Below are positions 48,024-64,000 of a DNA stretch of 64,000 bases, piece by piece (the first letter of the stretch is position 1; each line of letters begins with the position of its first letter). This stretch comes from an uncultured Chlamydiae bacterium (GTDB taxonomy: Bacteria; Chlamydiota; Chlamydiia; Chlamydiales; SM23-39): contig CAITMJ010000033.1 in assembly GCA_903893545.1 (NCBI GenBank), forward strand, positions 8,069 to 72,068. The letters are read 5' to 3'. The translations under genes and the position numbers were made by a program. The notes beneath the pieces were generated by a model. It saw only the letters and a list, made by a program, of their open reading frames with translations. It was not told where the DNA came from and ran no database searches.

Positions 48024-48869
48024 CTAACTATGTGGGTAGCCTTTAGCGGCTTTTTCCCAATCAAAGAGGACTCTCTCGGCTTTGTTGCGGTCCCAACGGA
48101 CTTGAAGGGAAAGATAGGGGTAGGGATGCCGATTATCGGCATTACGCCCTTCGTTTTTTTGGTGGAGCTTGATGAAGATTTCTTTGTTGAGCCAGGGCTG
48201 GGTATCCACTTTGGCGTCAGGCTTGTCATAGCGCTGAAAAGTGATCCACTCTTTTTGAGTTTTGTAGGTGGGGTGTTCTTGGTAATACTGCATGAGAAGG
48301 GTCACGATCTCAAGGGGCTGGTCTTCCATCCCCTGGATGTAAAAGTCTACTTCAGCGCCAATTTGATGTTTTGAAGCCTTGGCTTCTTTCGAGGGGTCGG
48401 TGTAAGAGTTGTGCGCAGGACAGCGATGACCGCTTGTAATGACCACTCGCTTTCCAGTCTTTTTTTGCAGGTAGTTCATAAGCTCGAGGAGGATAGGGTA
48501 GACGTTTTCTTTGCCCCCAATGATGGGTAGGCCGTGGCGAGTCATCCCATCGCAGTCGGCGAGCAGGGCGGGCTTTTCAGGGTCAGACAAGGAAGTATAG
48601 GGAGCATTGAGCGGAGAGCCTTTACAGCGAAAAAACTCCTTTGTGATCCGAGGCAGATGGGCTTCGGTTTCCCAAGGGTAGGAGCTACGCGGCATGTGCT
48701 GGGGAGGGGCGATGGGAGAAAAAACATCGTTCTCGGCGCGGTAGATGTATTCCCCCTTGCTATTTCGTCTCCGAACTTTCTCCTGTTCAGAGCGTTCAAA
48801 TCCAGAGCAGCTCACGAGGATAGAGATTAATCCGCAAATCCGTATAGTCCGGTTTAACAGGGTAACCAT
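48024..48869 (-). CDS. Peptidase M15A-like (YcbK/DUF882-type) lipoprotein
   Basis: 281 aa. Lipobox ILVSCSG. ITSGHRCPAHNSYTDPSKEAKASKHQIGAEVDF fits the SGYR..N....S.H..G.A.D pattern. Confidence 0.65.
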   Translation of the reverse strand: MVTLLNRTIRICGLISILVSCSGFERSEQEKVRRRNSKGEYIYRAENDVFSPIAPPQHMPRSSYPWETEAHLPRITKEFFRCKGSPLNAPYTSLSDPEKPALLADCDGMTRHGLPIIGGKENVYPILLELMNYLQKKTGKRVVITSGHRCPAHNSYTDPSKEAKASKHQIGAEVDFYIQGMEDQPLEIVTLLMQYYQEHPTYKTQKEWITFQRYDKPDAKVDTQPWLNKEIFIKLHQKNEGRNADNRHPYPYLSLQVRWDRNKAERVLFDWEKAAKGYPHS

Positions 48870-49950
48870 GCTTGAACCTCAACTCCATTGCAGACAAAAC
48901 GAAGAACCAAAGTACCAGGCTACGCTCGCTTTTGCAAATGTTCTTTTGCCAAGACTTTCAGAGGGGATTTTAATGCTCGATGTCAGCGGCAACTTCCAGG
49001 TTGTCGGCGATGCGGTTTTAAAACTATTCAACAAGGAAAAAGAGGCTCTTTTGCAGAGAAGCTTTTGGGATGTTTTTCCCGATGACCATTTCGGCTTTTC
49101 CATGCGCGAATCTCTTCGTTACGGAATCTCTCACGGGTTGATTTACAAGTCACTATCTGGCATGGAGTTAGAGATTTCAACATCGTTTTTTTGCGAAGGG
49201 CCAAGGGCTGAGCACGGCCTCATTCTCTTTCTTCGCGATATTACCGCCTGGCAAAAGCTACAGCAGATGGCCAAAAGAACCGACCGGATGAAGGAACTCG
49301 GGGAAATGGCGGCAAAGTTGTCCCATGAGATTCGAAATAGCCTCGGCGGGATCCGGGGATTTGCGAGTTTGCTATTTCGCGACCTCTCAAACCAGCCCCA
49401 TCTCCAGGAAATGATTGGCCGCATTATCGAAGGGACTAAGGCTTTAGAGCAGCTCGTGACAACCATTCTTGTATATGCCCGGCCGATAGAACTTGTAGAA
49501 CAGACGATCGATCTTTCTCAATTCATGAGGCAAACGGCAAAAGCGTTTAAGATCGATCCCAATTTCCCAACGAATGTGAAGTTCATCCTCCATATTCCAG
49601 ATGAACCGATCCTTGTCCCCGTCGATCCCGATGCCTTAAAACGGGCTCTCCTCAATCTCTTTTTTAACGCGATCCAGGCAATGGACGCGGGTGGCGAATT
49701 GACGGTCTCTTTATTGAAATACGAGCTGAGTTGCCAAATCTCCATTTCAGATACCGGAATTGGAATGAATGAAGAGCAGTTAAACTCCCTCTTCTCTCCC
49801 CTATTTACGACCAAAAGAACTGGCAATGGCCTCGGCCTTGTCGAAACTAAAAAAATTATCCAGGGACATGGTGGATCGATTGGAGTCCGCTCTACGCTAG
49901 GCCGCGGCAGCACATTCCTCCTGACGCTCCCTTTAAAGAGGTGCTCATGA
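48868..49950 (+). CDS. ctcB: Cytoplasmic PAS-histidine kinase (NtrB/AtoS type; CtcB-like)
   Basis: H-box AAKLSHEIRNSLGGI, N-box LLNLFFNAIQA, G-boxes DTGIGM and GNGLGL. Start chosen at ATG 48868 because the longer ORF overlaps the divergent gene. Confidence 0.8.
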   Translation: MLEPQLHCRQNEEPKYQATLAFANVLLPRLSEGILMLDVSGNFQVVGDAVLKLFNKEKEALLQRSFWDVFPDDHFGFSMRESLRYGISHGLIYKSLSGMELEISTSFFCEGPRAEHGLILFLRDITAWQKLQQMAKRTDRMKELGEMAAKLSHEIRNSLGGIRGFASLLFRDLSNQPHLQEMIGRIIEGTKALEQLVTTILVYARPIELVEQTIDLSQFMRQTAKAFKIDPNFPTNVKFILHIPDEPILVPVDPDALKRALLNLFFNAIQAMDAGGELTVSLLKYELSCQISISDTGIGMNEEQLNSLFSPLFTTKRTGNGLGLVETKKIIQGHGGSIGVRSTLGRGSTFLLTLPLKRCS

Positions 49951-61189: not shown

Positions 61190-61606
61190 TTATAGAGATA
61201 GTACAACAGTATTTTCTGACACCGGAGTGCTTGGAAGGGATTCGAAAAGCTGTGTCGTAGGCTCTTCATTCATAGAAGGAGTCTCAACCTTTCTCTCTGC
61301 AGATTCAGAAGAAGACTGAACTTTAGCCTCAACGGCCTCTTGCGCTTCTGATTTTACTGGAGCGGGTTCTGCCGCTGCGCTCTTTTCTTCTTTGGGCGTA
61401 TCAATTTCAATCACATGGACTTTCGCCTCTTCTCCGGCTTCTGTCTCATCGCACTCATCTTCATTGCATGGCACTTTATCTTCTGACGACGATTGTGGTG
61501 GAGCGGGAGGGGTAGCAGACATATCTTCTTTTGGATTGCAACTGCAACCGACAAGAGTGCTAATCACCCCGATTAAAAACAAATGACGCAACTGGTTTTC
61601 CTTCAT
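61190..61606 (-). CDS. Acidic, low-complexity lipoprotein (138 aa)
   Basis: Lipobox TLVGCS. E/S/P/A-rich body. Confidence 0.5.
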   Translation of the reverse strand: MKENQLRHLFLIGVISTLVGCSCNPKEDMSATPPAPPQSSSEDKVPCNEDECDETEAGEEAKVHVIEIDTPKEEKSAAAEPAPVKSEAQEAVEAKVQSSSESAERKVETPSMNEEPTTQLFESLPSTPVSENTVVLSL

Positions 61607-61691
61607 ATCAAATCCTTTGGTAAAGATCGTTCGAGTTCAGATTGAGGCTTTGTCAATTTTTCTTCAATTGAAAAGAGAGCATCTTTTCCCG

Positions 61692-61707
61692 TGGCACGGT
61701 TTTTGCA
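61692..61707 (+). promoter_or_regulatory. Sigma-54 (-24/-12) promoter
   Basis: TGGCACGGTTTTTGCA equals TGGCACG-N4-TTGCA. GG (61693-61694) and GC (61705-61706) are 12 nt apart. Lies 35 nt upstream of ATG 61742. Confidence 0.6.
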
Positions 61708-61741
61708 GGATATATTTATAGAACTGCCAAGGAGGAAACGT

Positions 61742-61927
61742 ATGAAAGAGAGAGAATTGATCAAAAAAATCGCCAAGCTAGAGACAATCAACGATCAGTT
61801 ATCCGCAGAGCTCAACTACTTAGAGCGGCTAACACGCGCGCTTGGATTTGCCGATGGCCTAAAAACCCTAAAAGCTGCCGCCTTAGAAATGTTGGAAAGC
61901 GATCACAAAAAAGACAAATTTAACTAA
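61742..61927 (+). CDS. Small coiled-coil protein (61 aa)
   Basis: AAGGAGG Shine-Dalgarno 6 nt before the ATG. MKERELIKKIAKLETINDQLSAELNYLERLTRALGF shows a heptad-like pattern. Confidence 0.5.
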   Translation: MKERELIKKIAKLETINDQLSAELNYLERLTRALGFADGLKTLKAAALEMLESDHKKDKFN

Positions 61928-64000
61928 ACAGTTTAAGTAGATCGTCTTGCGATAAAGTAGACTCTTCATTCTTAAGAAGCGCCTCGGCTGAGGCGGTTTT
62001 GGCTGCTTTGATCGCAAGCATCTTCTCTTCAATGGAATGAGGCGTTAAATAGCGGTGAACAAAGAGTGTCTTTTTTTGCCCTATTCGATGAGCGCGACCT
62101 ACCGCCTGCTGCTCGACTGCATCATTCCACCAAGGGTCTAAAAGAAAGACCGTTTCTCCGGCTGTGAGATTTAAGCCAACGCCTCCAGCCTTAAGACTTA
62201 AGAGGAAAAGATGCGGCTTTTCCTCTTCCTGAAAGCGGCGCACGATTTGCCCTCGCTCCTCTTCTGCCGTAGAACCATCTAGATAAAGAGGTTCGATCCC
62301 CACACCCCGCAGATCCTTCTGCAATAGGCGCAAAAACGTCGTAAACTGACTAAATACAATCACTTTCTTTCCAAGAGAAGCCAGCTCTTGCGCTGCAATG
62401 AGAAGCATTTCCGCTTTTGCGCCGGCCTCTTCTTCCCCGAGTAACCGAGGATCTGCGCAGATTTGGCGAAGGCGCAAAATCGCCTCCAACACTTCCATAC
62501 GATGTGCTTGAAGACCCTCTGCTTGCACTTTGCGAAGAAGGCCGTTTTTAAAGCCCAAAAGCACCCGATCGTAAAGAGCCTCCTGCGCTTCGGTAAAATC
62601 AACCCAAGTGGGACAATCGATCTTCTCTGGCAATTCAATCGCTACATCCTCTTTTCTGCGCCTGAGGATAAACGGCTTGAGTCTGCGATAGATAACTTCG
62701 GAAGGAGTTCTTAAGAACTCCGATTTTTCGCCCAGTAGATCGGGCATCATAAAACGAAACTGCGACCAGAGCTCCTCGGGACGGTTCTCTACAGGAGTTC
62801 CCGACATCGCAATCTTAAAACGAGCCTTCAAGCGATAGGCTGCTCCAGCTACCTGAGAGCTCGAAGACTTAATCATTTGCGACTCATCCAAAAGGGCCGC
62901 CTCAAACTCACATCCGGCCAAAAGCTCCTGATCGATCCGGAGAAGCGCATAGGAAGTCAGTATAACCTGGAAAGACCCCTCTAAAGTCTTTAAACGGTCG
63001 GGCCCCGAATGGAGATAGACCTTTGCCTCTGGCCAAAACCGAGACAATTCGCTCTGCCAGTTAAAGAGCAAAGAAGTCGGGGCGACGATCAAAATGGGCA
63101 AATCTGTCCTCAATTGGGAAAAAAATGCCACTGCCTGGACAGTTTTGCCAAGCCCCATCTCGTCAGAAAGTAGAGCCCCAAACCCCCATTTTTGGTGAAA
63201 CTGAAGCCACTCGACCCCTTTTTGCTGATAGGGCAAAAGCTGGCCCTGGAAATTCGAGAGATTGCAAGCTTCGAGCCCTGCGCCATTTTTAAGCGCAGCG
63301 ACGACCCTTTTTAAAGGCTCATCCCAGTCGACATTTTCTCGCTCTAAAAAAGGGAGGAGCTGTCCAATTTGCCGCTTCTGCAACCGAAGCGAATTTCCTT
63401 CCCACTCTCCTTCTAAAAGCACTTCCTTTTTATCGAGAAGCCCCACATGACCGCTCCCAAGTTCTACGAAAAGATGGCTTTTTTGACTATTTGCAACCAC
63501 TCCCTCTTTTTCTTGGAACCGGAGTTTGCCCTCAACCACAAGAGAGTCTCCCTCTTTGCCAATTCTTAGCTCAAGCGATGTCTGCGGCAAGATTTTTCTC
63601 CCTTGCATATCGATGCAAGTCCAACCAATGTCCAGTAAAAGCCGAATTGTCTCGCGCACCTTCTCGCCAGAGCAATAATAGCGGGCGTTTCCTAAAGTCT
63701 TTCGCAAATACCCCGCTTCCACAAGATCCCTCTCCCAAGAAGCCTCTTCTTTTTTCAGTCGAGTCCTGCCGTGAATATCCGGCGCTAAATCTTCAAACGC
63801 CACCTTCCCTACGCCCGGATAATCCATCCAAAGATTGGCAGAAATTCCCGCCGCATCGACCAAAACAAGCTGTGGGAAAACCGCAAGTGAATCCTCTGCC
63901 TTCTCTTCCCAAGAAACTTTCGGCTCCTCTTCGAGAAAATTCTTCTTATGAACCCCTTCTAAGAGCACCTTTCCAGAGCGAAAAAACTCAATCCACTTCC
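61920..64000 (-). CDS. SNF2-family helicase (partial; N-terminus beyond the window)
   Basis: DEMGLGKT (motif I), LLDESQMIKS (II), LLSLKAGGVGLNLT and QAVGRAHRIGQ (V/VI). The frame stays open from the GTG at 63968 to position 64000. Confidence 0.88.
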   Translation of the reverse strand, partial: KWIEFFRSGKVLLEGVHKKNFLEEEPKVSWEEKAEDSLAVFPQLVLVDAAGISANLWMDYPGVGKVAFEDLAPDIHGRTRLKKEEASWERDLVEAGYLRKTLGNARYYCSGEKVRETIRLLLDIGWTCIDMQGRKILPQTSLELRIGKEGDSLVVEGKLRFQEKEGVVANSQKSHLFVELGSGHVGLLDKKEVLLEGEWEGNSLRLQKRQIGQLLPFLERENVDWDEPLKRVVAALKNGAGLEACNLSNFQGQLLPYQQKGVEWLQFHQKWGFGALLSDEMGLGKTVQAVAFFSQLRTDLPILIVAPTSLLFNWQSELSRFWPEAKVYLHSGPDRLKTLEGSFQVILTSYALLRIDQELLAGCEFEAALLDESQMIKSSSSQVAGAAYRLKARFKIAMSGTPVENRPEELWSQFRFMMPDLLGEKSEFLRTPSEVIYRRLKPFILRRRKEDVAIELPEKIDCPTWVDFTEAQEALYDRVLLGFKNGLLRKVQAEGLQAHRMEVLEAILRLRQICADPRLLGEEEAGAKAEMLLIAAQELASLGKKVIVFSQFTTFLRLLQKDLRGVGIEPLYLDGSTAEEERGQIVRRFQEEEKPHLFLLSLKAGGVGLNLTAGETVFLLDPWWNDAVEQQAVGRAHRIGQKKTLFVHRYLTPHSIEEKMLAIKAAKTASAEALLKNEESTLSQDDLLKLFS

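Follow-up and report, generated by a model that had tools for sequence, protein, structure and literature searches.

The 135-nt spacer that separates a divergent 138-aa open reading frame from the start codon of a 61-aa gene (the mini-gene) contains a 16-mer, TGGCACGGTTTTTGCA, with the appearance of a sigma-54 (-24/-12) promoter. The locus lies in a 64,000-nt stretch of DNA from an uncultured Chlamydiae bacterium, referred to here as the window. It raises the question of whether the 16-mer is a promoter for the mini-gene and, if so, whether the two form a new candidate member of the chlamydial sigma-54 regulon, as the initial annotation proposed, or belong to a system that is already known. 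It is very probable that TGGCACGGTTTTTGCA is a sigma-54 promoter and that, with a CtcC-like activator, it drives the ortholog of Chlamydia trachomatis CT652.1/CTL0021. The features of the locus and of the associated regulatory genes are summarized in Table 1.

Table 1. Coordinates of the mini-gene, its predicted expression signals, nearby repeats and the regulatory gene pair in the window.
Feature	Position	Strand	Basis or detail
Sensor histidine kinase, CtcB/AtoS-like	48745..49950	+	Best NCBIfam match AtoS, E 2.8e-69, below equivalog cut-off
Sigma-54 activator, CtcC/AtoC-like, 444 aa	49941..51275	+	Pfam Response_reg, Sigma54_activat, HTH_8
Palindrome TCAATT-N7-AATTGA	61653..61671		Present in sequence; contains TTCAATTGAA at 61663-61672
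Second inverted repeat, GAAAAGA-N5-TCTTTTC, 7-bp arms	61670..61688		Abuts -24 element
Sigma-54 (-24/-12) promoter TGGCACGGTTTTTGCA	61692..61707	+	GG 61693-94, GC 61705-06
Predicted transcription start	61717..61719	+	~11-13 nt downstream of GC, inferred from standard geometry
Shine-Dalgarno AAGGAGG	61729..61735	+	6 nt 5' of ATG
61-aa protein gene, ortholog of C. trachomatis CT652.1/CTL0021	61742..61927	+	ORF list, homology
Terminator-like hairpin CGCCTCGGCTGAGGCG, then GTTTTGG	61980..61995	+	53 nt past stop, inside convergent SNF2 gene

The identity of the mini-gene follows from its homologues. The 61-aa protein has 276 database homologues, of which the best 120 of 276 are 75-88% identical, and the named homologues come from Chlamydiae MAGs. 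Six-frame searches located the protein in 194 of 200 sampled Chlamydiota genomes. Aligned by BLASTP with Protochlamydia PC_RS01835, an ortholog from Table S1 of PMC12282069, it shows 45% identity over 53 aa (E 6e-15). The Simkania ortholog of the same table is very close in sequence to the window protein and has a near-complete common core (...LLKKIA.LE...DQL..E.NYL..L....GF..GLKTLKAAA.E), which is also common to the Parachlamydia and Chlamydia sequences listed there. Family members are ~58-65 aa long, a range into which the window protein fits. Judged by these alignments, the 61-aa ORF is the CT652.1/CTL0021 ortholog.

CT652.1/CTL0021 is the best-documented sigma-54 target of C. trachomatis. 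Its sigma-54 promoter and transcription starts were mapped by Mathews and Timms (2000, J Bacteriol 182:6239, as cited in PMC12282069). In sigma-54 ChIP-seq of C. trachomatis, only ctl0021 (ct652.1) and ctl0052 (ct683) were bound in vivo, and all ctl0021 orthologs inspected from Chlamydia-related bacteria were found in silico to be preceded by a sigma-54 promoter (PMC12282069, mSystems 2025). The view of the mini-gene as a new regulon candidate therefore has to be given up, since the gene is the ortholog of one whose promoter was published in 2000 and whose ChIP-seq appeared in 2025. The unit is the published CT652.1/CTL0021 system in one more genome, and hence a further example, not a discovery. 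The window genome falls outside the set analysed in that study.

The likeness to ct652.1/ctl0021 of C. trachomatis extends over the whole unit. Both loci encode a member of a ~60-aa family in which a heptad helix at the N-terminus is linked to a second helix by a G-F-x-x-G-L turn; both have a GG/GC promoter at canonical spacing in a similar position, ~40-50 bp before the coding region; and both have rpoN and a CtcB/CtcC-type two-component system as partner machinery. There are also differences. In this case the system belongs to an uncultured environmental chlamydia (assembly size 1.63 Mb), and the -12 region reads TTGCA where the Chlamydia consensus is TCGCT. In addition, unlike C. trachomatis, this genome yielded no convincing ortholog of ctl0052, which encodes a TPR protein, and no second intergenic promoter. 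Like the window genome, the environmental chlamydiae Simkania, Protochlamydia and Parachlamydia have a predicted sigma-54 promoter ahead of their ctl0021 ortholog, and no ctl0052 ortholog is listed for them (Table S1, PMC12282069). The mini-gene is single-copy here, whereas Protochlamydia naegleriophila has four tandem copies.

The initial annotation described a consensus -24/-12 element with correct GG-GC spacing, followed at a sensible distance by an AAGGAGG Shine-Dalgarno sequence and an ATG at 61742, and each of these is present where it was placed. TGGCACGGTTTTTGCA agrees with TGGCACG-N4-TTGCW at all positions, and it also fits TGGCAC-N5-TTGCW with canonical GG/GC spacing. Transcription from sigma-54 promoters starts ~11-13 nt 3' of the GC element, a geometry that would leave a predicted 5' UTR of ~24 nt, which is unstructured by fold prediction. 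The ATG is 34 nt from the promoter, and relatives have GGAGG-like sequences at the position equivalent to the window Shine-Dalgarno. The 16-mer motif alone is not beyond chance: exact TGGCAC-N5-TTGCW occurs twice in the 1.63-Mb assembly, as does the reversed control pattern, and with up to one mismatch the window holds 2 occurrences against 1.65 expected. It is position, orientation and conservation that give the match its significance.

The machinery for such a promoter is encoded in the same genome. The rpoN gene is at G000:C21:79794-80228 (E 1.9e-37), and the NtrC-type activator and kinase that had been noted about 10 kb away are borne out as a single NtrC/AtoC-type activator with its kinase, 10.5 kb from the mini-gene. 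At E <= 1e-30 the genome has no other activator gene of this kind. GAFTGA is seen in the translation of the activator's AAA+ domain, and the kinase gene overlaps the start of the activator gene. As in C. trachomatis CtcB/CtcC (PMC7482065), a receiver and a sigma-54 AAA+ domain with GAFTGA are combined with an adjacent histidine kinase, the best named match is AtoC/AtoS, and the regulator is the only enhancer-binding protein of its genome. Unlike CtcC of C. trachomatis, which is without a DNA-binding domain (PMC7482065), the window activator carries a C-terminal Fis-type HTH (HTH_8, residues 401-440, E 2.5e-12). Within the phylum sample, activator alignments end at about residue 380-390 in families f4 and f3, whereas in most of the others they extend to ~440; f4, the family of the 1.0-1.3-Mb genomes, is presumably Chlamydiaceae. 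The HTH is also missing in a few genera of f1 and f6. Because the HTH is kept in most chlamydial families, its loss is derived, and by position and similarity the window activator is the CtcC ortholog in the ancestral HTH-bearing form.

Retention of the HTH makes an enhancer plausible in principle, and the initial annotation had pointed to the palindrome upstream of TGGCACGGTTTTTGCA as an activator site. Under this proposal, which adds to the main explanation, the palindrome would be the enhancer of the HTH-bearing CtcC-like activator, and the promoter would be enhancer-dependent, unlike that of C. trachomatis. The TCAATT-N7-AATTGA dyad is truly present, and the activator domain that could recognize it, missing from C. 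trachomatis CtcC, is kept in most families other than Chlamydiaceae. However, the dyad is at chance level and unconserved. Shuffling the 85-nt spacer yields a comparable inverted repeat with 6-bp arms in 24-44% of cases, and 27% of 85-mers drawn at random from the genome contain one. The palindrome is absent from the other orthologous promoters and even from a same-genus relative whose activator is 73% identical. Enhancers usually lie at -80 to -150, whereas the palindrome is centred nearer to the promoter, at only about -56 relative to the predicted start. When the regions upstream of 22 orthologues were searched for enriched dyads and k-mers, A/T tracts were the only result and no dyad was common to them; in 7 aligned close relatives, no conservation extends upstream beyond the -24 element; and comparison of the window promoter region with the DNA upstream of the kinase gene gave no common motif above shuffles. 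The palindrome is probably fortuitous, and its service as an enhancer is unlikely. The activator has a DNA-binding domain, yet no conserved binding site was found near the promoter. A second inverted repeat abuts the -24 element; at its position the same-genus relative (L006) has a different inverted repeat, TGTAAAGC-G-GCTTTACA, and other relatives have none.

The promoter element is conserved where the palindrome is not. When seven close relatives are aligned, conservation in the intergenic DNA is confined to the -24/-12 block, and the rest is unalignable. For a wider comparison, the DNA upstream of the mini-gene orthologue was taken from 90 genomes, 72 with sigma-54 machinery, defined as rpoN and/or a CtcC-like activator (G059 has the activator, with rpoN undetected), and 18 without, and a promoter was scored when GGCAY-N7-GC occurred no more than 200 nt before the start. 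Of the 72 genomes with machinery, 65 have the element; of the 18 that are without both rpoN and the CtcC-like activator, none does (0/18). These 18 represent six or more distinct lineages, namely two within f1, two f9 genera, and f15, f17, f23 and f30. The distance from promoter to ATG, 34 nt here, compares with a median of 33 nt in the 65 orthologous loci. In seven of the 72 genomes there is no canonical element before the closest mini-gene copy, so the link between promoter and machinery is strong, not absolute. The association gives a Fisher p of 1e-13, which is indicative only and overstates the support because related genomes are not independent. The repeated co-loss of promoter and sigma-54 machinery, as read from these genomes, is nevertheless strong evidence. 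In the larger sample, rpoN is found in 162/200 genomes and the CtcC-like activator in 161/200, with nearly identical family distributions. At least six lineages have lost sigma-54 and evidently keep the mini-gene under another type of promoter.

Some upstream regions in the comparison depart from the arrangement in the window. Three f9 genomes, G077 (L105), G132 (L026) and G031 (L095), have a mini-gene with a long 5'-leader hairpin. In G077 and G132 the sigma-54 promoter lies 60-95 nt before the start, upstream of the leader hairpin, and in G031 a canonical sigma-54 promoter was not found for this gene. Many f8/f9 genomes also have a second, divergent mini-protein paralogue (...LESKVDMLE.EL...CGFPEGI.TLK...), at loci L098, L100, L101, L102, L108 and L109 (genomes G092, G099, G031, G119, G057 and G077), with AT-rich upstream DNA and without the -24/-12 element.

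A genome-wide scan with a position weight matrix (PWM), proposed with the initial annotation as a way to rank the site, placed TGGCACGGTTTTTGCA first or second according to the matrix. With the published chlamydial PWM it scores 14.9, second in the genome behind a site inside accD, and these two are the only sites genome-wide above 10, the cut-off of the authors of that matrix. The higher score, 16.8, belongs to TGGCATATTTTTTGCA (G000:C2:42768-42783, minus strand), which is antisense in the 3' end of accD with no downstream ORF; this match is probably a false positive, the alternative being an antisense promoter. A second PWM was trained on 64 orthologous promoters, all from other genomes. It puts TGGCACGGTTTTTGCA first genome-wide at 24.9 bits, and TGGCACGGTTTTTGCA alone both reaches the training minimum and lies outside long ORFs. 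The loose pattern TGGCAY-N7-GCW has 37 matches in the genome; on inspection, 36 are within coding sequence and TGGCACGGTTTTTGCA is the sole exception.

No other convincing target emerged from these scans. Coding-region sites in accD (antisense), in rpsH, at the nusB start and in a SEC-C protein gene were rejected as sigma-54 candidates, as were further PWM candidates that form part of a tRNA-like tandem repeat. The latter are ~96-nt tandem repeats at G000:C2:69650-70180, outside the window, which resemble the 3' half of an adjacent minus-strand tRNA gene and gave a weak PWM match, TGGCATGCTTCTCTCA, twice. The published PWM, the loose regular expression and the orthologue-derived PWM, applied to the whole assembly, revealed no convincing second intergenic sigma-54 promoter. 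A tblastn search for a ctl0052 ortholog in the genome gave only a generic TPR match (E 3.7e-4). The mini-gene is thus the only recognisable sigma-54 target in the genome, an apparent one-gene regulon, in an assembly that is 95.6% complete and could therefore be missing a second target.

The same comparisons bear on the possibility that the -24/-12 match is fortuitous and that the main sigma-66 polymerase transcribes the mini-gene from an unrecognised promoter. Such a reading could draw on the 16-mer pattern being no commoner than its reversed control, on the other promoter type evidently used by orthologues in sigma-54-less lineages, and on the seven genomes that have the machinery and are missing the canonical element. 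It is countered by the rank of TGGCACGGTTTTTGCA as top score under the orthologue-derived PWM and sole intergenic match, by the fixed distance of the element in genomes with machinery and its absence from the others, and by its standing as the sole conserved intergenic block. A simple scan of the spacer found no sigma-70-type promoter, and the orthologous promoter of C. trachomatis was bound by sigma-54 and not by sigma-66 (PMC12282069). Transcription by sigma-66 through an overlooked promoter is consequently very improbable.

The protein encoded behind the promoter had been described as a coiled coil, which is roughly right and can now be refined by a heptad pattern in the first helix and a predicted two-helix hairpin. 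In an alignment of 43 close homologues, the conserved core comprises residues 8-51 with 21 invariant columns. AlphaFold2, run with this 43-sequence alignment, predicts helices at residues 3-34 and 37-57 with a mean pLDDT of 88, and the two meet at the invariant G35-F36. Helix 1 can be read as a heptad series (I10, L13, N17, L20, L24, L27, L34) with an invariant Asn at 'a', reminiscent of the GCN4 zipper. On the predicted model the protein is possibly a dimeric coiled-coil or hairpin protein. Pfam and NCBIfam hold no family model that matches it, a profile search of PDB sequences gave non-significant coiled-coil matches only (Nnf1, GCN4 zipper, FtsB; E 0.065 to 0.55), and Foldseek of the AlphaFold model against the PDB returned no matches. 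In C. trachomatis the gene belongs to the late class (PMC12282069). When CT652.1 was assayed for type III secretion in Shigella as a heterologous host, the result was positive (Subtil 2005, cited through PMC7862739). In another study it was positive in a BlaM assay, was rated 'possibly secreted', and localised to the nucleus as an ectopically expressed GFP fusion (PMC12671076). The C. trachomatis ortholog is a candidate type III secretion substrate.

The neighbourhood of the mini-gene is partly conserved. In f1, f8 and f9 the gene order is pheT, a MORN-repeat gene, a variable small gene, the mini-gene and a convergent SNF2 helicase gene. In the window, the product of the divergent 138-aa ORF (61190-61606, minus strand) resembles a lipoprotein at its N-terminus (...LVGC) and is otherwise acidic and rich in Pro, Ser and Glu; neither Pfam nor NCBIfam has a matching family, and tblastn found no homologue at the equivalent position in 30 related loci. 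At its stop codon the mini-gene shares 8 nt (61920-61927) with the end of the convergent SNF2-helicase gene. The terminator-like hairpin downstream is a weak terminator candidate, its fold being overall no better than shuffles (z -1.0). As the sole terminator-like hairpin lies inside the SNF2 gene, read-through would be antisense to the SNF2 3' end.

An in-frame 78-aa ORF from GTG 61691 and, given the SNF2 overlap and the location of the hairpin, a non-coding or antisense RNA against the SNF2 3' end can be imagined as the real product, but such readings are very improbable, since GTG 61691 falls within the promoter itself, the homologues begin at the Met equivalent to 61742 with upstream residues unconserved, a strong Shine-Dalgarno precedes that ATG, and the protein is conserved without stops across the 194 genomes with its 21 invariant columns in close homologues. 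On the homologue alignment, the 78-aa ORF was rejected as the product, and likewise an antisense 62-aa ORF.

The preferred reading, sigma-54 control of the CT652.1/CTL0021 ortholog, builds on what was observed: the identity of the promoter motif, the orthology of the gene, the full machinery, and a promoter that is conserved across the phylum and lost together with sigma-54. From these a mechanism can be proposed. Sigma-54 RNA polymerase would sit on the -24/-12 element as a closed complex. The adjacent CtcB/AtoS-like kinase would phosphorylate the single CtcC/AtoC-like regulator, and ATP hydrolysis by this regulator would open the complex, if activation proceeds through CtcC as supposed. TGGCACGGTTTTTGCA would then transcribe, from a start expected at ~61718, a monocistronic mRNA for the 61-aa helical protein. 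By analogy with C. trachomatis, the unit may act as a late-developmental switch, with timing carried over from that organism.

The mini-gene and the ctcB/ctcC operon also lie near each other in many genomes. More than 35 genomes, from 10 or more chlamydial families, have both on one contig at a separation of 10-40 kb. Distances include 10.5 kb here, 15.7 kb in G159, 13.7 kb in G147, 18.9 kb in G001 and 21.3 kb in G104; G132, G055 and G152 are exceptions. This linkage may be simply conserved synteny.

A broader proposal can be entertained tentatively, namely that here, and probably in most chlamydiae outside Chlamydiaceae, rpoN, the kinase and the HTH-bearing activator serve only the 61-aa protein. 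It is favoured by the finding that at least six lineages have kept the protein after the loss of sigma-54, and by the location of the mini-gene within 10-40 kb of ctcBC in many families. As a claim about the whole apparatus it is possible, though somewhat doubtful.

On the sequence evidence, the gene can confidently be annotated as a sigma-54-controlled member of the CT652.1/CTL0021 family, and the finding corroborates the 2025 proposal that the chlamydial sigma-54 regulon is small and conserved. The loss of the promoter together with rpoN and the activator, with the protein kept, constitutes comparative evidence for sigma-54 dependence that is apparently additional to published work. Beyond this promoter co-loss, what is added here is the apparent one-gene regulon, an HTH without a detectable conserved enhancer and the 10-40 kb ctcBC linkage. 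If the apparatus does serve this gene only, the mini-protein would be the ancestral and sole effector of the phylum's sigma-54 developmental switch.
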